Positions 4,749 to 16,182 of a stretch of 16,182 nucleotides of DNA are shown here, one piece after another. The stretch is from a virus. Lineage: Duplodnaviria; Heunggongvirae; Uroviricota; Caudoviricetes. The notes under the pieces are model-generated. The model was not told the origin of the DNA, ran no database searches, and was given only the letters and a program-made list of their open reading frames with translations. Within the stretch, counting starts at the first letter, position 1, and each line of letters opens with the position of its first letter. The stretch lies in the IMG/VR virus record IMGVR_UViG_2526164689_000027, positions 1 through 16,182 of that record. The stretch is one strand, 5' to 3'. A program made the translations under genes and the position numbers.

Positions 4749-4904
4749 TTACTCCTCAGGTTCGTAAGCTGTGAAGACAGCGACCTCCGTCTGGCCGGTT
4801 CGGATTCGTACCTCGCAGAGGTCTTTCCTCGTTACCAGTGCCGTCACTATGACGGTTAAACAGATGACAATCAGGGCGATTAACATCGCCTTTTGCTGCT
4901 TCAT
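4749..4904 (-). CDS. hokD: Hok/Gef-family type I membrane toxin (HokD/RelF-like, 51 aa)
   Basis: MKQQKAMLIALIVICLTVIVTALVTRKDLCEVRIRTGQTEVAVFTAYEPEE matches the Hok/Gef family across its full length (transmembrane helix then conserved CEVR..GQTEVAVFTAYE). ATG at 4904; the track ORF extends in frame to an upstream ATG at 4961. Confidence 0.85.
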   Translation of the reverse strand: MKQQKAMLIALIVICLTVIVTALVTRKDLCEVRIRTGQTEVAVFTAYEPEE

Positions 4905-5175
4905 AGCCTGCTTCTCCTTGCCTTTCGGCACGTAAGAGGCTAACCTACATGTGCAAAGCATGAAATTGGCCTCAGATTAATGTTAAGCGTCCTGCAAGAC
5001 GCGTAATGTTAACTGGGGCTTTTCTCTGTCTGCCTTACGGCGGCATGCCCGAGGCAGACAGCCTCAAGCACCCGCAGCAATTCTACTTAACTCTTCTTTC
5101 CCCGCAAATCATTTTATCCCCGATGGTAATGTTCTCCCGATATGGGAATTCCCATATCAAGGTTAACTCAATCGG

Positions 5176-5727
5176 TTAAAGCTCCATTAATTTTCCGGCC
5201 AGTTCATCTCGTGGCATTACCAGCCATCCGCGCGATTTAAGCAAAGCCAGGGCTTCTTCAACCGTCACCAGCTGGCCAGGCGCATAACTTCGGATGAAGG
5301 CGGTTTTATCGTCACGGATCGCCAGGTGAAAATCGATATTCATTTTTCCCATAGCCCGCTCTTTCTCGTACTGGTTGAAGTAACTGTCTTCGAGTTTTTC
5401 GAATACTTCCCACGCCTGATCGGTTTCGAGCATTTTTGCATGACGGGCTGCTCCGCGTTCTGTCCAGAGGATGAGAGTGCGGGTTTTGGGAGAAATTTTC
5501 ACCTCATTTTGCGACTCGTTTAAAACTAGTCGCAAATTTTTGAGCTCATCACCAACAGCTTTAAAGAAGTGTTTTCCCTCAATAAATCGAGATTTATTTT
5601 CATGGTGATTCTGCTGTATACGGATTGCTTCTGTTCCGTAAAGGCGGGCGAGTAACTCAGTTGTGATTACAGGAATCTGGTTATAAGTGACAGGGGAAAG
5701 GTTTTTGACAGTAACTTGAGTCGTCAT
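5176..5727 (-). CDS. ORF6N-domain protein (phage antirepressor-like, 183 aa)
   Basis: ATG at 5727 with GAGGG SD. N-terminus ITTELLARLYGTEAIRIQQNHHENKSRFIEGKHFFKAVGDEL fits the ORF6N/KilA-N-like consensus (from recollection). Confidence 0.5.
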   Translation of the reverse strand: MTTQVTVKNLSPVTYNQIPVITTELLARLYGTEAIRIQQNHHENKSRFIEGKHFFKAVGDELKNLRLVLNESQNEVKISPKTRTLILWTERGAARHAKMLETDQAWEVFEKLEDSYFNQYEKERAMGKMNIDFHLAIRDDKTAFIRSYAPGQLVTVEEALALLKSRGWLVMPRDELAGKLMEL

Positions 5728-5891
5728 GATAACGCCCTCTGGTTGATGAATTTAACTATCACCACCTTCAGGTCTCAATCATCAGGTGGCGAGACGTACA
5801 GGGTTGAGACTACCGGATCAACCAACCGGCCAGCCTTTCGGCTGCCCCATACGCCTCACCATAATTCAGATGTGCGTGCGCATACGACAAT

Positions 5892-5913
5892 AAAAAACAC
5901 GCTCGCGGCGTGT
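5892..5913 (-). terminator. Rho-independent terminator in the nin-type region (tR2-like position)
   Basis: On the minus strand: stem ACACGC / GCGTGT with 5-nt loop CGCGA, followed by 6 U (complement of A5892-A5897). Confidence 0.45.
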
Positions 5914-5998
5914 GTCTGTCGCGGTTGAATATCCGGGGTCTCAATCCCGACGGTCAACTCGACCGTGCGGTGAATATAGCCCCGGATTAGTAATTACG

Positions 5999-7788: not shown

Positions 7789-8613
7789 TTACCCCCTTGC
7801 TGACTGGTTAACCTGCGCCCTGACGTGATTTACGTGACGGGCGAATTTCTGCTCCCACTGAATCTGCGTAAACACTTTCCCCTCCGCTGCCCAGTAGTCC
7901 CGGAATGCGGTAAGTTCAGCAGGTGTAAATTCTGTCTCCGGCAAAGCCATCCCCCACAACGCAGCCCGTCGTCGAAAATCCCGTGACGGATACCAGCTAT
8001 CGGTCATCGGAAATTTTCCGATGGGTTCGCTCAGGCCATCCAGGAATACATGGGGGGCTGCCTGTAACGACAAAACTTCCTGCTCACTGATCGGAGCACT
8101 CTCGCGTGCGTTATGTGTGGGGTTTAGATCTTTGGGTTCCTTTGGGTTCCGTGATCCGTTTTTGGGTGTCTTTGATGGAAAATTTGGGTGTCTTTGGTTA
8201 TTTTCCATGCAACAAAGAGTTCCGTTTTTGGGGCTCTTTTGTGCTGAAACATAACCGTTTTCGGTACTGTTTTTATTAACAGCACCAATTTTACCCACCT
8301 TTAAAGACACCCGTTTTTGGGTGTATTCAGGCTCGGCAACACTTTCTTCTACACCGATAAGTCGGTACACCACAATTTGCTTTGTTCTGCCTTTTCTCTC
8401 ACCGGTATCAACAATTAACCCAATCTCCATCAGGTGTCGTAAGCTGTCCTGCACAGTCTTTTTGTTCAGTTCCGTTACTTCTGCCAGTGCAGATACAGAC
8501 GGGTATGCACACAAATCGGCACCGCACATATCAGCAAGCCAGGTCAATACAGACTTACTGGATGAACTGCCGGTTTTCACCTTTTTAGCCCATCGTAGTG
8601 CATCGATACTCAT
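7789..8613 (-). CDS. Replication initiator, lambda O-like (274 aa), with ori iterons embedded in the coding sequence
   Basis: ATG at 8613 with AGGGG SD; the track's longer start at 8688 would overlap the upstream gene by about 100 nt. N-terminal wHTH (MSIDALRWAKK...LRHLMEIGLIVD), a repeat-encoded linker (KSPKNGT...SKTPKNGSRNPKEPK), and a C-terminal domain, directly upstream of the P-like gene. Confidence 0.6.
   Translation of the reverse strand: MSIDALRWAKKVKTGSSSSKSVLTWLADMCGADLCAYPSVSALAEVTELNKKTVQDSLRHLMEIGLIVDTGERKGRTKQIVVYRLIGVEESVAEPEYTQKRVSLKVGKIGAVNKNSTENGYVSAQKSPKNGTLCCMENNQRHPNFPSKTPKNGSRNPKEPKDLNPTHNARESAPISEQEVLSLQAAPHVFLDGLSEPIGKFPMTDSWYPSRDFRRRAALWGMALPETEFTPAELTAFRDYWAAEGKVFTQIQWEQKFARHVNHVRAQVNQSARG
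8131..8324. repeat. Iteron cluster, putative prophage origin of replication
   Basis: TTTGGGTTCC twice in tandem (8131-8150); TTTGGGTGTCTTTG at 8161-8174 and 8184-8197; degenerate copies at 8225-8240 and 8311-8324; an inverted copy AAAGACACCC at 8303-8312; AT-rich stretch 8253-8300. Lies in the linker region of the O-like gene, as the lambda ori does. Confidence 0.5.
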
Positions 8614-9136: not shown

Positions 9137-9347
9137 TGTTCAACCGCCCCGCCCGCTTCGTCTTACGATATTCGTCATAAACCTTGGGATCATACAGAAG
9201 CTCGCCGCCAGATGCCTCCTGTAGACGCATCGCGCGACCTTCAGGAACTAGCTCTTGCCATTGAGAAACAGCAGATGGGTCAACGCCAGCAGCTTTCGCT
9301 ACTTTGGCTTTCGTACCGTAAAAATTAATTACGTCTGATTTAAACAT
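9120..9347 (-). CDS. dicC: Cro-like HTH regulator (DicC / YdaS family, 75 aa)
   Basis: ATG at 9347 with GGAGGT SD; the track start at 9374 is upstream of the SD. Divergent from the repressor gene. AKVAKAAGVDPSAVSQWQ is a Cro/CI-type HTH, and the C-terminus RAMRLQEASGGELLYDPKVYDEY is typical of this family. Confidence 0.65.
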   Translation of the reverse strand: MFKSDVINFYGTKAKVAKAAGVDPSAVSQWQELVPEGRAMRLQEASGGELLYDPKVYDEYRKTKRAGRLNNENHS

Positions 9348-9354
9348 CGCACCT

Positions 9355-9424
9355 CCAATATTGAGTTTTCTCAATACTAATCACTCAAGGAATCTCAAGT
9401 CAAGGGTTATTAAGATATCTAAAT
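9355..9424. promoter_or_regulatory. Divergent immunity promoter/operator region (oR-like)
   Basis: 14-bp palindrome TTGAGTTTTCTCAA at 9361-9374. On the minus strand, -35 TTGACT (9403-9398) and a -10-like TAGTAT follow with the palindrome over the start site. The repressor gene starts at 9425 with no strong SD. Confidence 0.45.
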
Positions 9425-9832
9425 ATGAACGAGAAAACTTTAGGTCAACGCATTAGAGAAAGACGTAAGCAGGTAGGCTTAAGTCAAAACGGTTTAAGCA
9501 AAGCTGCTGGCGTATCTGGCTCATCAATTTCATTATGGGAAAGTGACCATACAGCCCCGCGCGGGCAAAATTTGCATCGCCTCGCCGAGGTATTGCAATG
9601 TTCACCAACCTGGATACTGTTTGGCGACGAGGACAAAACACCAGCTCCCCCTGTTTCACTCGATAGTACCCTAGACTTATCGGAAGATGAGTTAGAGATG
9701 CTGCGTTTGTATCGCGCACTTCCTAAATCAGAGCAACAAGCACAACTCAGCGAACTCCGCGCCCGCGTTGAGAATTTTAATCGCCTGTTCACCGAGCTAT
9801 TAGAGGCTCGCAAACGCAACAAGCATCAATAA
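9425..9832 (+). CDS. dicA: DicA-like prophage repressor (XRE HTH, 135 aa)
   Basis: N-terminal HTH QRIRERRKQVGLSQNGLSKAAGVSGSSISLWESDH, then LQCSPTWILFGDEDK and C-terminus ELRARVENFNRLFTELLEARKRN, closely matching my recollection of E. coli DicA, which is also 135 aa. Confidence 0.8.
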   Translation: MNEKTLGQRIRERRKQVGLSQNGLSKAAGVSGSSISLWESDHTAPRGQNLHRLAEVLQCSPTWILFGDEDKTPAPPVSLDSTLDLSEDELEMLRLYRALPKSEQQAQLSELRARVENFNRLFTELLEARKRNKHQ

Positions 9833-9890
9833 TCATCCCTTCACAAAATTTTAAAGCCTTACATTTCAATGTATTGGCTTTATCTTGCGC

Positions 9891-9948
9891 CAATACTTGA
9901 GTTTTCTCATCAAAAAACCTTGACGAAAAATAATGAGAAAACTAAATT
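9891..9948 (+). promoter_or_regulatory. oL/pL-like operator-promoter for the leftward early operon
   Basis: CAATACTTGAGTTTTCTCA (9891-9909) repeats the oR motif CAATATTGAGTTTTCTCA (9356-9373) with one extra base; an inverted copy ATGAGAAAACTA is at 9932-9943. -35 TTGACG (9920-9925), 17-nt spacer, -10 TAAATT (9943-9948), with operator copies covering the spacer. Confidence 0.4.
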
Positions 9949-10024
9949 ATCTCCATCAACACACCGCACGGTGTTCTCCGCAAACAGTTCCGCTACCCCG
10001 GCGTTAAGGGGAAATGAGGTCAGC

Positions 10025-10177
10025 ATGGATACTATCGATCTTGGCAACAACGAATCTCTGGTATGTGGCGTGTTTCCCAATCAGGACGGCACGTTTACCG
10101 CGATGACGTATACCAGAAGCAAAACGTTTAAAACGGAAGCTGGCGCGCGTCGCTGGTTAGCAAGAAACTCTGACTGA
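10025..10177 (+). CDS. ydfA: YdfA-like small protein (50 aa), first gene of the dicB-type operon
   Basis: ATG at 10025 with GAGG SD 7 nt upstream; the longer track ORF from 9869 has no SD and crosses the promoter. Size and position after dicA match Qin ydfA. Confidence 0.5.
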   Translation: MDTIDLGNNESLVCGVFPNQDGTFTAMTYTRSKTFKTEAGARRWLARNSD

Positions 10178-10827
10178 TGAGGTTGACGATGGAATTTAAA
10201 GATTTACCTCCTTCAATCCAGGAGATTGCAGCACACACACTTCGTCATCGTCTGAACGAACTTGAATTGGAATCGGTAACGAAAAAAGACACTGATAATA
10301 TGGCTCGTAATGTGCGCGATGCGTTTACCGGATTGTATTTCTGTGCGTCTATAAATAAACACGACTCAGAGAGTGTGGCAAATAAAATTGCAGAAACGAC
10401 AGCGCAAAACATCAATACGAAACCAACGGAAGAAGAAATTGATCAGTTTGCTCATGATGCTGGTTTAAAAAACAAGAAAGAAAAATCGCCATATGCGGGG
10501 AACATGTTTGTTTATGACAATCTCATCAGAATTCGTGGCGAAATTCCGGCGGAATACCTGGCAAGAGTCCATCAGGCATTGCTTAAAAATTTGGAAACAG
10601 AATTATTTGATGGCAACACTAACGGTTTCTTCATGGTATCAGGCCTTGAGAAAGACTGGGATGCAGAAAAACGCTGGAATGTTGCTACATGGTTATTCAG
10701 TAACAGAGCCGCTGCACTGGAAGCTTCGGCATGTATTTGCGGCCTGTTCTTAACAGACCACAAATATAATCTGGATGTGTACAGTTATATTTACGCTGAA
10801 CACGGTCCACTCTGGATTGACTGGTAA
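10177..10827 (+). CDS. Hypothetical 216-aa protein, no recognisable domain (alternative start 10189)
   Basis: ATG at 10177 overlaps the upstream stop (TGATG); the internal ATG at 10189 has a GAGG SD. Soluble, acidic, no transmembrane segment or nucleotide-binding motif seen. Occupies the slot where I recall Qin carrying only the small ydfB/ydfC genes. Confidence 0.5.
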   Translation: MRLTMEFKDLPPSIQEIAAHTLRHRLNELELESVTKKDTDNMARNVRDAFTGLYFCASINKHDSESVANKIAETTAQNINTKPTEEEIDQFAHDAGLKNKKEKSPYAGNMFVYDNLIRIRGEIPAEYLARVHQALLKNLETELFDGNTNGFFMVSGLEKDWDAEKRWNVATWLFSNRAAALEASACICGLFLTDHKYNLDVYSYIYAEHGPLWIDW

Positions 10828-11037
10828 TTATAAGGAAACACCAGCAGGGCCGCGGCGACCAACAGAACGATTAAAATCAATAATGCCATTATAAAGGACA
10901 TTATTTAATTTATCGTCGAATGCTGATTCTGTGAGCCTCAACTCTGAATGAGTTTTTAATAACCCTGATTGCCTGAGTTGATTTACCAGGCATTCAATCT
11001 GTTTTTCAATAAGCGGATTTCTTTTTTTGTTTGGCAT
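10828..11037 (-). CDS. Hypothetical 69-aa protein, convergent with and abutting the 216-aa gene
   Basis: ATG at 11037 with GGAGGA SD 5 nt upstream. Its stop codon (10830-10828) directly abuts the stop of the plus-strand gene (10825-10827). Opposite orientation to the surrounding operon. Confidence 0.35.
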   Translation of the reverse strand: MPNKKRNPLIEKQIECLVNQLRQSGLLKTHSELRLTESAFDDKLNNVLYNGIIDFNRSVGRRGPAGVSL

Positions 11038-11376
11038 TTTATCCTCCATTGAGGTTCTGGGTTAAAAATGGAGACCAACACGCTGTCACGTGTGGTCGTG
11101 CGCCGGACACGGATAAGAATCCGGTACTGACAGTTTACTGAAAGGATATTTCCCTGAAAAGTCAGTGCATAACGCGAAAGCGTACGGCGAAGCTCTTTCC
11201 CTTAGAAGGCTTGTCGTTAGATTTCTTCGAACGTGCGCTTCCGGTTGTGGCACTCCGCGAAATGGCGCGGCGGTAAGTATGGCGGGGTTATTCCTTCCCC
11301 AGTTGAGGACACCGGGTTGTCAGGTTGACCATACGCTTAAGTGACAACCCCGCTACAACGCCCTCTGTTATCAATA

Positions 11377-11434
11377 TTCTGGTGACATTTGGCGGTATCA
11401 GTTTTACTCCGTGACTGCTCTGCCGCCCTTTTTT
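11377..11434 (+). ncRNA. dicF: DicF small regulatory RNA (Hfq-dependent sRNA targeting ftsZ and other mRNAs)
   Basis: TTCTGGTGACATTTGGCGGTATCAGTTTTACTCCGTGACTGCTCTGCCGCCCTTTTTT matches my recollection of E. coli DicF almost base for base, including the terminator hairpin GGCGG (11391-11395) / CCGCC (11423-11427) and U-tract. Lies just upstream of dicB as in Qin. The 5' end is approximate (RNase-processed in K-12). Confidence 0.7.
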
Positions 11435-11604
11435 AAAAGTGAATTTTGTGATGCGGTGAATGCGGCTCAGCGCACGCGGAACAGTTAAAACCAAAAACAG
11501 TGTTATGGGTGGATTCTCTGTATCCGGCGTTAATTGTTAACTGGTTAACGTCACCTGGAGGCACCAGGCACCGCATCACAAAATTCATTGTTGAGGACGC
11601 GATA

Positions 11605-11793
11605 ATGGAAAAGTTATCATGTAATGCCAGCACGTCTGAACTTCGTTTCGAAATTGGCGTTATCACTGGAGACAAAACATTTATTGAAGACGCCATTAAG
11701 CAGAGAAAACTCGAGCAGGACCTGTTAAATGAAGTATGCATTCCTTCAATGCTGGCTCGTCTGGACCTGCTGCAAAAAGGATATAAACAATGA
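11605..11793 (+). CDS. dicB: Cell-division inhibitor DicB (62 aa)
   Basis: ATG at 11605 with GAGGA SD; the track ORF from 11500 would run through DicF. MEKLSCNASTSELRFEIGVITGDKTFIEDAIKQRKLEQDLLNEVCIPSMLARLDLLQKGYKQ aligns with recalled DicB (FEIGV, EDAI, SMLARL blocks) at the same 62-aa length. Confidence 0.8.
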   Translation: MEKLSCNASTSELRFEIGVITGDKTFIEDAIKQRKLEQDLLNEVCIPSMLARLDLLQKGYKQ

Positions 11794-11981
11794 ATACAAC
11801 ATTTGCACTCGTTCTGACAGTTTATCTTGTTTCCGGCGAATCTCTTGAGCTGGTGACTGGCTTATACGGTTCAATGAAAGAATGCATGGCTGCAGCAGCA
11901 GAACAAAAAATTCCCGGTAACTGTTATCCGGTAGATAAAACTACTCACACTAATAATAACGAAATACCGGCAGGACTTTAA
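11790..11981 (+). CDS. ydfD: YdfD-like small lysis/membrane protein (63 aa)
   Basis: ATG overlaps the dicB stop (ATGA). Hydrophobic N-terminus MNTTFALVLTVYLVSG, 63 aa, immediately after dicB as in Qin. Confidence 0.65.
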   Translation: MNTTFALVLTVYLVSGESLELVTGLYGSMKECMAAAAEQKIPGNCYPVDKTTHTNNNEIPAGL

Positions 11982-12074
11982 AACAGCACCGTAATTAATA
12001 TCCGGTTTCATTTTTATATGCCAGCAATGGCAGGGATTTGTTCACCCTTAAATCTGTAATGAGGTTAAAACAAA

Positions 12075-14546
12075 ATGAGTAAAGTCTTTATTTGCGCCGC
12101 CATTCCGGACGAACAGGCAATAAAAGAAGAGGGCGCAGTTGCTGTAGCCACTGCCATTGAAGCCGGTGATGAACGCCGCGCCCGTGCCAAATTTACCTGG
12201 CAATTCCTGGAGCAATATCCTGCTGCTCAGGACTGCGCTTATAAATTTCTTGTCTGCGAAGATAAACCTGGCATGCCCCGCCCTGCTATCGACTCCTGGG
12301 ATACCGAATATATGCAGGAAAACCGCTGGGATGAGGAATCCGCTTCCTTTATTCCGGTCGAACCAGAATCCGATCCTATTAACGTCAATTTTGACAAGCT
12401 GTCCCTTGAAGTACAGAACGCGGTCCTGGTTAAGTTCGGTACATGTGAAAACATCACCGTTGATATGGCGATTGACGCGCAGGAATTACTGCAAGAAGAC
12501 GTGGCTACCTTTGACGGACATATCGTTGAAGCACTGATGAAAACGCCTGAAATTAACGCTATGTATCCGGAACGCAAACTGTTCGCTATCGGATGGGTTA
12601 AACACAAATGTAAGCCGGGTACCAAATGGCCCGAAATTCAGGCTGAATTACGTAACTGGAAAAAACGGCAGGACGCAGAGCGCAAAGAGACTGGAAAATA
12701 CACGTCTGTTGTTGATCTTGCCCGCGCCAAAGCCAACCGACAGCACACTGAAAACCCAGCAGAAAAAATCCCTCCTGTAACTGCCGCCATTCATCGCGAA
12801 TACAAGCAGACATGGAAAACCCTGGACAGGGAGCTGGCCTACTATCTCTGGCCTGGTGATGCGGATGCCGGAAACATTGACGGCAGCATCCTTCGCTGGG
12901 CTAAAAATGAAGTTATCGCCAGAGATCGCGAAGACTGGAAGCGCATCTCCGCATCAATGCGCAAACAACCTGATGCGCTTCGCTACAGCCGCCAGACTAT
13001 TTTTGGCCTTGTCCGTGAACGTCCGATCGACATTCACAAAGACCCTGTGGCACTGAACAAATACATTACTGAATACCTGACTACAAAGGGCGTGTTTGAA
13101 GATGAAGGAAGAAATCAGAGCGCAACTGATACTCTCTCGTCGCCAGTACCAGAAACTGATGCAGTGGAAACGGCAATTCAGGACAACGAAAAAACCGAAT
13201 GCAAAGTGGAAGTCGAATCATCTGTAGAGCGTGAGGGGCCGTTCTACTTCCTCTTCAGCGACAAGGATGGCGAAAAATACGGTCGTGCAAACAAACTTTC
13301 TGGTCTGAATAAGGCGCTGGCTGCAGGGGCTACTGAAATCACGAAAGAAGAATATTTTGCCCGCAAAAACGGTACATACTCAGGTTCACAACAAAATACT
13401 GGTGCATCTGACACGATCGCACAACCGGAGCCGGTAAAAGTTACCGCTGACGAAGTAAACAAAATTATGCAGGCAGCCAATATCAGCCAGCCTGACGCCG
13501 ATAAGTTGCTTGCTGTATCACGTGGTGAATTTGTTGCAGGGATTAGCGACCCGAATGATCCGAAATGGGTGAAGGAGATTGAAACCCGCGATTCAGTGAA
13601 TCAGAACCAGCAAGAAACGGAACAGAACGACCAGAAAGCGGAACAAAACAGCCCAAATGCGTTACAAAACGAGCCAGAAACGAAACAATCCGAACCAGTA
13701 GTGCAACAGGAACCGGAAAAAGTCTGCACCGCCTGCGGTCAGAGCGGTGGCGGCAACTGCCCCGATTGTGGCGCTGTCATGGGCAACGCAACATACCAGG
13801 AAACATTCGATGAAGAGAATCAGGTTGAAGCTCAGGAGAATGATCCGGAGGAAATGGAAGGCGCTGAACATCCACACAAGGAGAACACTGGCGGCAATCA
13901 GCATCACGCCAGCGATAGTGAAACTGGCGAGGCGGCAGATCCCTTAATTAAGGTGAATGGTCATCACAATCTCACATCCACCAGCAGAGCGGGGATTCAT
14001 CTGATGATCGACATTGAAACCATGGGAAAAAATCCCAATGCCGCGATTATCTCAATAGGCGCAATATTTTTCGATCCACAAACCGGAGATATGGGACCGG
14101 AATTTAGCAAGACCATCGATCTGGATACTGCTGGCGGAGTTATTGATCGTGACGTCATTAAATGGTGGCTGAAGCAATCACGTGAAGCGCAGTCTGCCAT
14201 TCTGACCGATGAAATCCCGTTAGATGATGCACTACTGCAATTGCGGGAATTTATCGCCGAAAACTCCGGTGAATTTTTTGTTCAGGTCTGGGGAAATGGA
14301 GCCAACTTCGACAACGTGATTTTACGCCGTTCATACGAACGGCAGGGGATCCCCTGCCCCTGGCACTACCACAACGATCGCGATGTACGCACAATCGTTG
14401 AGCTAGGGAAAGCCATAGACTTCGATGCCAGAACAGCTATCCCATTCGAAGGTGAGCGCCACAATGCACTTGATGACGCCCGTTACCAGGCAAAATACGT
14501 TTCAGCTATCTGGCAAAAACTGATCCCGAGTCAGGCTGATTTTTAA
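12075..14546 (+). CDS. Large prophage exonuclease (823 aa): unassigned N-terminal region, Cys4 zinc ribbon, C-terminal DEDDh 3'-5' exonuclease domain
   Basis: ATG at 12075 with GAGG SD. C-terminal motifs MIDIETMG (Exo I), WGNGANFDNVIL (Exo II) and HNALDDARYQ (Exo III) define a DnaQ-like DEDDh exonuclease. CTACGQSGGGNCPDCG (about 13721-13775) is a CxxC...CxxC zinc ribbon. Position corresponds to Qin ydfE, which I recall as a 306-aa IS-truncated remnant in K-12. Confidence 0.75.
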   Translation: MSKVFICAAIPDEQAIKEEGAVAVATAIEAGDERRARAKFTWQFLEQYPAAQDCAYKFLVCEDKPGMPRPAIDSWDTEYMQENRWDEESASFIPVEPESDPINVNFDKLSLEVQNAVLVKFGTCENITVDMAIDAQELLQEDVATFDGHIVEALMKTPEINAMYPERKLFAIGWVKHKCKPGTKWPEIQAELRNWKKRQDAERKETGKYTSVVDLARAKANRQHTENPAEKIPPVTAAIHREYKQTWKTLDRELAYYLWPGDADAGNIDGSILRWAKNEVIARDREDWKRISASMRKQPDALRYSRQTIFGLVRERPIDIHKDPVALNKYITEYLTTKGVFEDEGRNQSATDTLSSPVPETDAVETAIQDNEKTECKVEVESSVEREGPFYFLFSDKDGEKYGRANKLSGLNKALAAGATEITKEEYFARKNGTYSGSQQNTGASDTIAQPEPVKVTADEVNKIMQAANISQPDADKLLAVSRGEFVAGISDPNDPKWVKEIETRDSVNQNQQETEQNDQKAEQNSPNALQNEPETKQSEPVVQQEPEKVCTACGQSGGGNCPDCGAVMGNATYQETFDEENQVEAQENDPEEMEGAEHPHKENTGGNQHHASDSETGEAADPLIKVNGHHNLTSTSRAGIHLMIDIETMGKNPNAAIISIGAIFFDPQTGDMGPEFSKTIDLDTAGGVIDRDVIKWWLKQSREAQSAILTDEIPLDDALLQLREFIAENSGEFFVQVWGNGANFDNVILRRSYERQGIPCPWHYHNDRDVRTIVELGKAIDFDARTAIPFEGERHNALDDARYQAKYVSAIWQKLIPSQADF

Positions 14547-14615
14547 TGTTCAACCATCGCCGGTTGTGACTGGTATTCTGCAACCGGCCCTCATCTGATG
14601 TAAGAGATAAAAGCG

Positions 14616-14867
14616 ATGAGCGAAGTAATCATGATTGTCTCTCCCGGTAAATGGGTATCCGAAGAGCAGTTAATTGCGCTGAAAGGAATAAAAAAAGGTA
14701 CGTTAAAAAAGGCCCGGGAAAAATCGTTTATGGAAGGAAGGGAATATAAGCATGTCGCTCATGACGGTATGCCATGGGATAACAGTCCATGCTTTTACAA
14801 CCTGGAAGAAATTGATCGCTGGATTGAGCGCCAGGCATCTGCAAGACCAAGACGTCATCTTGCTTGA
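14616..14867 (+). CDS. Excisionase-like protein (83 aa)
   Basis: Small basic protein directly upstream of the integrase; WVSEEQLIALKGIKKGTLKKAREKSFMEGREYKH is consistent with a winged-helix Xis fold. Start is uncertain (14616 or 14631). Confidence 0.5.
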   Translation: MSEVIMIVSPGKWVSEEQLIALKGIKKGTLKKAREKSFMEGREYKHVAHDGMPWDNSPCFYNLEEIDRWIERQASARPRRHLA

Positions 14868-14901
14868 CTAAAAGCAACACGAACCAATGAGAGAAGCTGA
14901 A

Positions 14902-16182
14902 ATGAAATATCCGACAGGCGTGGAAAACCATGGAGGGAAATTACGTATCTGGTTTGTTTATAAAGGTGTAAGAGTCCGGGAAAATCTTGGGGTTCCTGAC
15001 ACAGCAAAAAACAGGCGCATTGCAGGTGAGCTACGCGCCTCTGTTTGTTACGCAATAAAAACTGGCGCTTTCGACTATGCAAAACAGTTTCCCGCCTCAC
15101 ACAATCTGGAAAAATTTGGTGAGGCCCGACAAGATTTAACCATAAAAGAACTGGCTGAAAAATTTCTGGCACTGAAAGAAACTGAAGTCGCAAAAACGTC
15201 ACTCAACACGTACCGTGCCGTCATCAAAAATATTCTGAGCATAATCGGTGAAAAAAATCTTGCATCATCGATTAATAAAGAAAAATTGCTGGCGGTACGT
15301 AAAGAGTTACTGACTGGATACCAGATCCCCAAAAGTAACTATATTGTTACACAACCAGGGAGATCGGCTGTTACCGTAAATAATTACATGACAAATCTTT
15401 ACGCCGTGTTCCAGTTTGGTGTTGATAACGGTTATCTGGCAGACAATCCATTTAAGGGGATCTCACCATTAAAGGAGTCGAGAACCATCCCGGATCCACT
15501 TTCGCGGGAGGAGTTTATCCGCCTTATTGACGCGTGCAGAAATCAGCAAGCCAAAAATTTATGGTGTGTTTCCGTTTATACTGGGATTCGCCCTGGTGAA
15601 CTCTGTGCGCTTGGATGGGAAGATATAGATCTGAAAAATGGAACAATGATAATCAGAAGAAATCTGGCAAAAGACCGTTTTACAGTACCAAAAACACAGG
15701 CGGGAACCAATCGTGTGATTCACCTTATTAAGCCCGCAATCGACGCTCTCCGGAGTCAGATGGCACTAACGAGACTGAGCAAAGAGCATATCATCGATGT
15801 TCACCTCAGAGAATTCGGCAGAACAGAGAAACAAAAATGTACCTTTGTTTTTCAACCTGAAGTGTCAGCGAAAGTAAAAAATTATGGTGACCATTTTACC
15901 GTTGACTCAATAAGGCAGATGTGGGACGCAGCGGTAAAGCGTGCCGGAATCCGCCATCGCAAATCGTATCAGTCGAGACACACTTATGCCTGCTGGTCGT
16001 TAACAGCAGGAGCTAACCCGGCATTCATTGCAAACCAGATGGGCCATGCAGATGCGCAAATGGTGTTTCAGGTGTACGGGAAATGGATGTCAGAAAATAA
16101 TAATGCGCAGGTAACGCTGTTAAATACACAGTTAAGCGAGTTTGCCCCAACCATGCCCCATAACGAAGCGATGAAAAGTTAA
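14902..16182 (+). CDS. Tyrosine-type phage integrase (426 aa from ATG 14902; alternative ATG 14887)
   Basis: Catalytic-domain signature RPGELCALGWEDID ... SRHTYACWSLTAGANPAFIANQMGHADAQMVFQVYGKWM (R, H-x-x-R, G-H, Y). N-terminus MKYPTGVENHGGKLRIWF is typical of lambdoid prophage integrases. The stop TAA is at 16180-16182, the window end. Confidence 0.85.
   Translation: MKYPTGVENHGGKLRIWFVYKGVRVRENLGVPDTAKNRRIAGELRASVCYAIKTGAFDYAKQFPASHNLEKFGEARQDLTIKELAEKFLALKETEVAKTSLNTYRAVIKNILSIIGEKNLASSINKEKLLAVRKELLTGYQIPKSNYIVTQPGRSAVTVNNYMTNLYAVFQFGVDNGYLADNPFKGISPLKESRTIPDPLSREEFIRLIDACRNQQAKNLWCVSVYTGIRPGELCALGWEDIDLKNGTMIIRRNLAKDRFTVPKTQAGTNRVIHLIKPAIDALRSQMALTRLSKEHIIDVHLREFGRTEKQKCTFVFQPEVSAKVKNYGDHFTVDSIRQMWDAAVKRAGIRHRKSYQSRHTYACWSLTAGANPAFIANQMGHADAQMVFQVYGKWMSENNNAQVTLLNTQLSEFAPTMPHNEAMKS

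Follow-up and report, generated by a model that had tools for sequence, protein, structure and literature searches.

Two-component recombinases are taken here to comprise a 5'-3' exonuclease of the lambda Exo, RecE or YqaJ type and a neighbouring annealase. Full-length RecE makes linear-linear recombination efficient, and it is in cloning of this kind that the N-terminal two-thirds of the protein matter in practice. DnaQ-type nucleases have been reported independently in the Rec modules of lambdoid phages (Genome Res 2025, PMC12315714). According to PMC12153337, EcD, a stand-alone E. coli homologue of the T4 exonuclease DexA, digests 5hmC DNA only and protects against T4. The product of the gene analysed here is very probably a modular RecE-family protein in which the RecE nuclease has been replaced by a DEDDh exonuclease of the DexA type.

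The gene occupies positions 12075..14546 (+) of the window, i.e. the whole stretch of 16,182 nucleotides that was analysed, as an open reading frame (ORF) of 823 aa with an ATG start and a GAGG sequence 10 nt 5' of the start codon. It matches phrog_2082 over its full length and joins a DEDDh exonuclease head to a scaffold of the RecE family. The product is 100% identical to WP_000048585.1 ('exonuclease'), which is found in E. coli O103 RM8385 and many EHEC genomes, and the full-length gene is an already catalogued variant of the RecE family; a wide protein search with the 823-aa protein included 120 near-identical E. coli copies among the matches listed. The database names 'exodeoxyribonuclease VIII' and '3'-5' exoribonuclease' carried by the protein are probably misleading. 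The first-pass annotation had described the full-length form as poorly characterised and this description holds, since the literature searched yielded neither biochemical or genetic work on the 823-aa protein nor any functional study of the full-length form, and the part of RecE that matches its scaffold is itself of no known function according to a review (PMC11611040).

Residues 1-640 form a non-catalytic scaffold in which two N-terminal modules (N1 and N2) and a small beta domain precede a conserved segment, a zinc ribbon and an acidic linker. The N1 module (aa 1-222; 12075..12740, +), a small alpha/beta domain and a helical domain of the YdfE_N/YdfE_C type that survive in K-12 as YdfE, and the N2 module (aa 245-348; 12807..13118, +), a helical domain common to RecE from which the NCBIfam RecE match starts (aa 246), were modelled by AF2 with pLDDT >95 and >92, respectively. 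They are followed by a small beta-beta-alpha-beta-alpha domain (aa 388-435; 13236..13379, +; AF2 pLDDT 90-97), which corresponds to a gap in the BLASTP alignment with K-12 RecE and is hence absent there, and by the conserved segment L (aa 455-500; 13437..13574, +), which contains ..DADKLLAVSRGEFVAGISDPNDPKWVK.. and is near-identical in RecE on sequence comparison. The remainder consists of a low-complexity linker rich in Q, N and E by composition (aa 501-548; 13575..13718, +), a Cys4 zinc-ribbon motif of the form CxxC-x7-CxxC (13725..13769, +) and an acidic linker (aa 566-640; 13770..13994, +), recognised from its composition and the RecE alignment, of which residues 566-600 are acidic in composition. 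The Cys4 zinc ribbon and the Glu/Gln-rich low-complexity linker proposed in the first pass were both recovered, the former as the motif C551-x2-C554-x7-C562-x2-C565, for which zinc binding is putative, and the latter as the stretches 501-548 and 566-600. The ribbon (aa 551-565) is also present in RecE; 13 of 150 family representatives carry the motif, which hardly varies among them, and its Pfam DZR match is weak (E 0.14).

The relationship of the scaffold with RecE was evident in several searches. The NCBIfam model NF007259 (RecE, exodeoxyribonuclease VIII equivalog) matched aa 246-625 to its positions 271-602 with an E-value of 6e-85, the score of 285.9 bits lying below the curated cut-off of 1269 that marks a full-length RecE equivalog. 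BLASTP aligned aa 279-625 with residues 294-591 of K-12 RecE (E 2e-64), the two being near-identical over aa 470-625, zinc ribbon and acidic linker included, and the DNA at 13499-13948 is 76% identical to K-12 recE. The homology stops at ADPLI (aa 621-625; ADPVI in RecE, at about 587-591), where the nuclease core of RecE starts. Pfam gave no match in the 823-aa protein to either the PF12684-type PD-(D/E)XK nuclease or the N-terminal Exonuc_VIII domain (PF06630), its C-terminus being PF16473 instead. Residues 1-240 probably correspond to the newer Pfam families YdfE_N (PF27430) and YdfE_C (PF27432), which a precomputed table lists for proteins that are 100% identical over aa 1-640, mostly full-length 823-aa copies. 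A Foldseek search with the AF2 model of aa 1-460 (pLDDT 85) recovered no structural relatives from BFVD at E <= 1e-3, and no PDB structural relative of the N1 module (aa 1-222) was found. The view that some 600 N-terminal residues are unassigned is therefore superseded, as aa 246-625 match the RecE model and aa 1-240 probably belong to the YdfE families. A match of the N-terminus to a known recombination domain, which the first-pass annotation had named as an outcome that would speak against its reading, was obtained as far as the RecE match goes, but not as far as a domain of known function.

The predicted DEDDh 3'-5' exonuclease head (aa 642-813; 13998..14513, +), of the DexA/Rv2179c type, matched the Pfam family PF16473 (Rv2179c-like) with an E-value of 1.8e-66 and 223.6 bits against a gathering cut-off of 27. 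Residues D646, E648, D746, H796 and D801 align with D7, E9, the third motif Asp, H186 and D191 of T4 DexA, and all five catalytic residues are also conserved in the alignment with EcD and c341 gp29; the earlier claim of a 3'-5' DnaQ-like domain in place of a 5'-3' nuclease is borne out by the family match and these intact residues. The DNase T4 DexA (E 6e-6) provides the only PDB chains matched by the protein at E <= 1, which argues for DNA rather than RNA as the substrate of the head. EcD, identified in IMG/VR loci from its published primers, is 37% identical to the window head (E 9e-37). EcD is not simply the isolated head of the window protein, since the primers lead to a separate gene of 189 aa, ahead of which no more than 21 codons are open, and identity to the window head is limited to this 37%. 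DexA residues W152 and D169, for which PMC12153337 proposes a part in 5hmC recognition, are replaced by H766 and K779 in the 823-aa protein (W132 and E145 in EcD), the D169/K779 alignment being less certain because the column falls in a loop. The tetramer-contact Asp of DexA (D90) is retained as D718, the corresponding residue of EcD being A78. The head is under purifying selection, with dN/dS of about 0.15 (0.15-0.16; 0.22-0.27 for the linker-zinc-ribbon segment).

Combinations of heads and scaffolds were analysed by segment phmmer on 56 long family representatives, and four head types were found on one scaffold among the relatives: PD-(D/E)XK, DEDDh, a Rad52-fold annealase and one of no assigned kind. 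The scaffold is shared with genuine recombination proteins. A RecE-type N1 occurs with a DEDDh head (representative P0129) and a YdfE-type N1 with a PD-(D/E)XK head (P0131; Pfam DUF3799). A YdfE-type N1 also occurs with the head termed 'class A', for which the top seven Foldseek PDB matches of the AF2 model (pLDDT 84) are all human RAD52 (E 3e-7 to 4e-6). At the sequence level, its Rad52 Pfam match is weak (E about 0.003 in 8 of 11 members), the PHROG label reads 'exonuclease' and a PDB profile search gave no match; it was the fold comparison that decided where the sequence support was weak, and by its modelled structure this sister head is a Rad52-fold annealase.

The neighbours differ with the head. 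Of four loci with a PD-(D/E)XK head, three (K-12, L033 and L046) have RecT next to it, and DEDDh heads lie directly before xis/int, with neither an annealase nor a Gam-like gene, in all six loci examined, the window included, so that the lack of an annealase is not peculiar to the contig of the window. At the recT position of locus L045 (P0246), a 271-aa gene matches PHROG 3657, a family of no assigned function. All ORFs of appreciable size in the window, from the Q antiterminator to int, were scanned with PHROG, NCBIfam and Pfam without a match to RecT, Red-beta, Erf, Sak or Rad52, in keeping with the first-pass observation that the nuclease has no annealase partner, and the locus does not qualify as a two-component recombinase.

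The DicA-repressed early-left operon (dicBF, PL-like) of a Qin-like lambdoid prophage ends with the exonuclease gene. The DicA-type repressor gene that controls the operon (9425..9832, +; NCBIfam NF007257, E 1e-71) is followed by DUF1391, a 216-aa gene of no assignment, the DicF sRNA that marks the dicBF operon (11377..11428, +; Rfam RF00039, 77 bits), dicB and a ydfD-like gene (DUF1482) immediately 5' of the exonuclease gene (11500..11981, +; annotation, PHROG and NCBIfam), the exonuclease gene itself and, directly 3' of it after a gap of 69 nt and with no gene between, xis (14616-14867) and int (14887 to the window end; 14616..16182 with xis, +). The promoter dicBp is repressed by DicA (J Bacteriol 2023, PMC10448788). 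The locus confirms the earlier placement of the gene where lambdoid phages keep their recombination genes. Sites predicted by promoter and terminator scans over 9300-15000 were no more frequent than in shuffled sequence, which leaves a separate promoter for the exonuclease gene unsupported, and a hairpin without a T-run is present at 14559-14588, 3' of the stop codon. A Chi site (GCTGGTGG) lies at the scaffold/head junction on the minus strand (13978..13985, -); the window contains three Chi sites vs 0.43 expected, and a related whole prophage six vs about 2.1 expected, five of the six being on the late-gene strand. Lambdoid phages with Chi and without a Rec module form a class in PMC12315714, into which the window phage fits, but the enrichment is modest (6 in 48 kb vs 23 in phage LLS; PMC12315714), which counts against a link with host recombination.

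The gene is widespread in E. coli. DNA of the DEDDh head was detected in 4069 of 5426 complete genomes (75%), at 8101 places and often in multiple copies, with up to 7-9 gene copies per genome, compared with 1750 genomes (32%) for recE-nuclease plus recT, and at least 3511 genomes carry the full-length ORF intact. Within the RecE family, no other form is as common in E. coli as the one with the DEDDh head.

The DexA-type DEDDh domain has taken the place of the RecE PD-(D/E)XK nuclease exactly at the linker/nuclease junction, with recT absent along with the RecE nuclease. In the mechanism that is considered the likeliest, the protein would be made with the other early-left products upon prophage induction or infection, the scaffold would bring the head to DNA ends or to recombination or replication intermediates, and the head would remove nucleotides at DNA 3' ends during lytic growth, for example in the blunting of 3'-tailed ends for RecBCD loading or in the removal of 3' flaps. 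Because an annealase and a RecBCD inhibitor are absent and Chi is present, such trimming would serve host RecBCD/RecA recombination and not phage annealing. We infer here that the substrate is DNA, that the scaffold targets the head and that the activity is linked with host recombination. The architecture and the mechanism, taken together as one explanation, are given a probability of roughly 0.55; scaffold-delivered 3'-end trimming in the service of host recombination, as a mechanism in itself, is put forward tentatively, the odds being somewhat against it. DnaQ-type 3'-5' exonucleases usually inhibit and do not promote homologous recombination, and DnaQ genes adjoining int are not counted as Rec-module genes (PMC12315714), both of which count against the mechanism, as does the naming of PF16473 after an exoribonuclease against DNA trimming.

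The homology of the head with T4 DexA and EcD, at the E-values given above, and the presence of a prophage-borne gene in up to 7-9 copies per genome would be in line with a nuclease for anti-phage defence or superinfection exclusion, of the HREX/EcD kind, whose head would selectively digest the modified (5hmC) DNA of incoming T-even phages and thereby protect the lysogen. The residues proposed for 5hmC recognition are, however, not conserved, and the Asp by whose absence the EcD state is defined is kept (D718). Moreover, the gene is no moron with its own promoter but lies at the distal end of a lytic operon under DicA repression, where it should be silent in the lysogen; PADLOC gave a generic DEDDh match and no defence system, and the scaffold elsewhere accompanies recombination proteins, all of which makes a role in defence unlikely. 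Slightly less likely still is an exoribonuclease with phage or host RNA as its substrate, which would act through the decay or processing of the 3' ends of early-left transcripts (e.g. DicF), the retroregulation of int/xis or the turnover of host RNA. The namesake of PF16473 is the M. tuberculosis exoribonuclease Rv2179c and many NCBI copies are named '3'-5' exoribonuclease'; the RNA of the operon is heavily processed (DicF), the gene adjoins xis/int and the hairpin follows its stop codon. On the other hand, the sequence is closest to a DNase among the solved structures, its nearest stand-alone relative sits in an erf-ssb-abc2 DNA recombination module and the scaffold is common to a DNA exonuclease and a Rad52-type annealase.

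A nuclease of counter-defence or host takeover would destroy a nucleic-acid component of host immunity, such as retron msDNA or a different signal in the form of 3'-ended ssDNA or oligonucleotides, or it would degrade host DNA to scavenge nucleotides, as DexA does. Early expression in the lytic programme accords with this, and Rac RecE reportedly interacts with a retron system. Host DNA scavenging is among the accepted roles of DexA (PMC12153337). However, none of the loci examined showed a retron, CBASS or similar context and temperate lambdoid phages normally do not degrade the host chromosome, so that this role is improbable. That the gene is a functionless relic, a module remnant left after loss of the true nuclease and recT and spread by prophage mosaicism, is highly improbable: defective prophages are common in E. 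coli, the K-12 copy is a pseudogene and a capsid gene is disrupted in the RM8385 prophage, but the many intact full-length ORFs, the dN/dS of 0.15-0.27, the conservation of all five catalytic residues and the retention of the architecture in diverged representatives from other contigs argue against decay.

Beyond the proposed trimming of 3' ends, we would regard it as a doubtful extension that the RecE/YdfE scaffold (roughly 450-640 residues) is a general platform that brings swappable DNA-end effectors to one cellular target. Nucleases of either polarity (5'-3' or 3'-5'), a Rad52-type annealase and the fourth head would be such effectors, and their target may lie at a DNA end, in the replisome or among the host recombination factors. 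If this were true, the DEDDh version would represent a previously unrecognised phage recombination function, the conditioning of 3' ends in conjunction with host RecBCD/RecA, and the role of the N-terminal 600 residues of RecE would be explained, including the need for the full-length protein in linear-linear recombination. In any case, one scaffold carrying either exonuclease polarity or a Rad52-type annealase offers an experimental handle on the role of the scaffold, and the gene bears on how lambdoid phages lacking their own recombinase cope with host RecBCD.

Among the described counterparts, YdfE, a pseudogene of the Qin prophage in E. coli K-12, is the orthologue; it corresponds to aa 1-256 at 84% identity and lies in the same locus order (dicB-ydfD-ydfE-intQ-rspB). 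The K-12 copy differs in being cut by IS2E (IS2) after codon 256, and lacks the rest of the scaffold and the nuclease; the statement in the first-pass annotation that the K-12 Qin equivalent is a truncated remnant was correct. RecE of the K-12 Rac prophage resembles the window protein in the helical N2, the DKLLA.SRGEFV.GISDPNDPKWVK segment, the CxxC-x7-CxxC ribbon and the acidic linker, and in its distal early-left operon position after kil-type genes and before xis-int. It differs in its N1 (PF06630 vs the YdfE type) and in its head, a 5'-3' PD-(D/E)XK nuclease in RecE as against a 3'-5' DEDDh nuclease (PF16473), and recT adjoins recE whereas none follows the window gene. T4 DexA and E. coli EcD (the HREX pair, PMC12153337) share the fold family and the DEDDh residues with the window head, which is 26% identical to DexA and 37% to EcD, but they are single-domain proteins of 189-227 aa, whereas the window head is fused behind a 640-aa scaffold, has H766/K779 at the positions of DexA W152/D169 and keeps the Asp equivalent to DexA D90. 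The closest stand-alone relative found is gene 29 of Salmonella phage c341/g341c (epsilon34 type; PMC12315714), which is 56% identical to the window head and also belongs to an early-left operon. This gene encodes 182 aa and is packed between erf-ssb and abc2, whereas the window head is fused to the RecE-type scaffold and its gene has no annealase, SSB or anti-RecBCD neighbour. Lambda Exo/Bet (Red) and other two-component recombinases share with the window gene the equivalent early-left map position and a presumed role in DNA-end processing; lambda Exo/Bet is not homologous to it and digests with the opposite polarity, and the window has neither an annealase nor Gam.

The exonuclease gene under study (12075-14546, + strand) comprises 823 codons, starts with ATG and carries a GAGG 10 nt 5' of the start. 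It shows 100% DNA identity to the 'exonuclease' gene (WP_000048585.1) found in many EHEC genomes, among them E. coli O103 RM8385, and the RM8385 copy, flanked by a DUF1482 (ydfD-like) gene on one side and xis-int-rspB on the other, occupies the Qin attachment site. Since the ends of the window lie ~880 bp further apart in the RM8385 prophage, the window represents a related prophage and not the RM8385 prophage itself. The first-pass annotation had described a large DEDDh exonuclease with a zinc ribbon and a Glu/Gln-rich linker, truncated in the Qin prophage of K-12 and devoid of an annealase partner. The DEDDh domain is found at residues 642-813 (PF16473, Rv2179c-like; Pfam E 1.8e-66) with the catalytic residues D646, E648, D746, H796 and D801 all present, and is preceded by a CxxC-x7-CxxC motif (C551, C554, C562, C565) lying between a segment rich in Q, N and E (501-548) and an acidic one (566-600). 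K-12 ydfE corresponds to residues 1-256 (84% identity), after which it is interrupted by IS2E, and no annealase of any family was detected when every sizeable ORF of the interval from the Q antiterminator to int was compared with PHROGs, and the early-left genes with NCBIfam as well. Therefore, every element of that observation is real. A GC-rich inverted repeat of 8 bp (GCCGGTTG..14 nt..CAACCGGC; 14559-14588, +) lies between the stop codon and xis; it has no T-run 3' of it and might serve in RNA processing or bind a protein.

The N-terminus, on the other hand, had been regarded as unassigned, which does not hold. The NCBIfam RecE (exodeoxyribonuclease VIII) model matches residues 246-625 (E 6e-85, far short of the full-length cut-off), BLASTP aligns residues 279-625 with residues 294-591 of K-12 RecE, and the recent Pfam families PF27430 (YdfE_N) and PF27432 (YdfE_C) are assigned to proteins identical to the window protein. 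The likeness to RecE is near-identical from about residue 470 across the zinc ribbon and the acidic linker and stops abruptly at ADPLI/ADPVI; in RecE, residues 564-866 form a nuclease fragment which, according to a review, can genetically replace the whole protein. The DEDDh-headed protein is a variant of the RecE family. The scaffold family (residues 1-640) is narrow, as a search of 1.84 billion representative proteins yielded only 245 relatives at E <= 0.001.

Mapping of the segments onto 56 long representatives, with the heads confirmed using Pfam, revealed all combinations of N-terminal module and head. A YdfE-type N-terminal module is joined to the DEDDh head in the window protein, to a PD-(D/E)XK head in P0131 and P0198 and to heads without a Pfam match in two further classes, while the RecE-type module (PF06630) carries the DEDDh head in P0129, P0142 and P0262 and the PD-(D/E)XK head in RecE itself and P0246. 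No description of this head-swapping pattern was found in the literature. Comparison of the DNA shows the mosaicism typical of lambdoid phages in the window, with 13499-13948 showing 76% identity to K-12 recE, 13521-14555 showing 90% identity to a Rac-like DEDDh gene (L032) and 13434-14588 showing 92% identity to phage vB_EcoS-640R1 (L030). Three Chi sites are present in the window against 0.43 expected, at 2499 (+), 6025 (-) and 13978-13985 (-, GCTGGTGG), the last of which covers codons 635-637, exactly at the scaffold/head junction where the RecE homology stops and the DEDDh head starts. The RM8385 prophage has six Chi sites against about 2.1 expected, five of them on the late-gene strand.

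The tails without a Pfam match form a single BLAST cluster (n=26), which the alignment separates into a larger class A and a smaller class B. The class A head is predicted to be a Rad52-fold annealase: eight of 11 members give weak Rad52_Rad22 matches, and human RAD52 accounts for each of the best seven Foldseek matches of the AF2 model (pLDDT 84) in the PDB (E 3e-7 to 4e-6). The class A fusion genes (L036, 5001-7337; L037/L038, 5001-7370; proteins P0130, P0135 and about 20 other representatives) are flanked by a Gam-like inhibitor and a Mu-Gam-like (Sipho_Gp157) gene, with which they constitute a complete recombination module. These fusions possibly correspond to the 'RecE-2' proteins, which PMC12315714 mentions as having no nuclease domain and an unknown role, and the name 'exonuclease' given to them in PHROG 2489 looks wrong. 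Class B, whose head spans about 250 residues, represents the fourth type (L034, 4001-6109, P0126; also P0230, P0236, P0257 and P0261) with no Pfam match, its sole match being phrog_26058, a family without known function; xis-int lies directly 3' of the gene at L034.

The type of head correlates with the partner gene. A RecT gene follows the PD-(D/E)XK head in K-12, L033 (PF03837, E 2e-36) and L046, and at L045 the recT position is taken by a 271-residue protein that matches PHROG 3657, a family without known function. [quoted passage not shown]

DicF is located at 11377-11428, 5' of dicB (Rfam), which makes the exonuclease gene the distal member of the dicBF operon. This PL-like operon is repressed by DicA and switched on by an antirepressor or when the bistable DicA/DicC switch flips (PMC10448788). 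The gene has no promoter of its own that stands out, and this, together with the repression by DicA, favours a lytic role over constitutive activity in the lysogen. C4 antisense RNA and isrK sRNA (Rfam; 5782-5866 and 5892-5966, -) lie immediately upstream of an antirepressor ORF (5176-5727, -; phrog_2379), forming a P1/P7-style C4-controlled antirepressor cassette within a lambdoid prophage. This cassette is probably equivalent to Rem, the antirepressor by which DicA repression is relieved. A sok antitoxin RNA (4899-5073, -) and sRNA STnc100 (536-724, -) also scored above the Rfam gathering threshold; a 70-residue ORF (4749-4961, -) occupies the place expected for a hok-type toxin gene, where hokD is annotated in the related RM8385 prophage. 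A 216-residue early-left ORF (10177-10827, +; phrog_2151), without Pfam-independent annotation, takes the position of ydfB and ydfC in K-12 Qin.

On the reading judged most likely, the protein would work together with host recombination in the lytic cycle, trimming the 3' ends of DNA in intermediates of recombination or replication. Such trimming could blunt 3' tails for RecBCD loading or remove flaps, while targeting or assembly would fall to the scaffold. Architecture, conservation, genomic context and the correlation of head with partner are demonstrated here; the substrate, the part played by the scaffold and the tie to RecBCD are inferred. The main argument against this reading is the general tendency of DnaQ-type 3' exonucleases to antagonise recombination (PMC12315714). 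DEDDh head DNA occurs in 4069 of 5426 complete E. coli genomes (75%; 8101 places, with a maximum of 7 in one genome), and recE nuclease with recT in 1750 (32%; 1841 places). A relic is less likely: the full-length gene is covered to 80% or more in 3511 genomes, and dN/dS values against two diverged copies (0.15-0.16 for the head, 0.22-0.27 for the linker-zinc-ribbon segment) indicate that selection maintains the gene. An exoribonuclease is also less likely, the only PDB chains matched by the head at E <= 1 being those of the T4 3'-5' DNase DexA (8KEL/8KEN), as is a counter-defence or scavenging nuclease.

A defence nuclease directed at 5hmC DNA is suggested by EcD, a stand-alone E. coli homologue of DexA reported in 2025 to digest only 5hmC DNA and to protect against T4 (PMC12153337), but is likewise less likely for the window protein. 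EcD, located via its published primers, is a separate 189-residue gene with 37% identity to the window head; the DexA residues W152 and D169, which PMC12153337 links to recognition of 5hmC, correspond to H766 and K779 in the window protein, the second pair falling in a loop where the alignment is less certain. The window protein also keeps, as D718, the Asp whose loss is characteristic of EcD. The closest stand-alone relative (56% identity) is gene 29 of Salmonella phage c341 (L031, 3995-4543), which retains the Trp equivalent to W152, absent from the window protein, and lies inside a recombination module between erf-ssb and abc2, at the position of P22 abc1. DnaQ-type nucleases within lambdoid recombination modules are reported in a 2025 survey, which noted in passing sporadic ones 'very near int' and excluded them as module members (PMC12315714). 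The gene is already catalogued (a RefSeq protein, PHROG 2082 and the new Pfam families), and no experimental study of it was found in the literature. The most fitting description of the protein is a scaffold of the RecE family that bears a DexA-type 3'-5' exonuclease.
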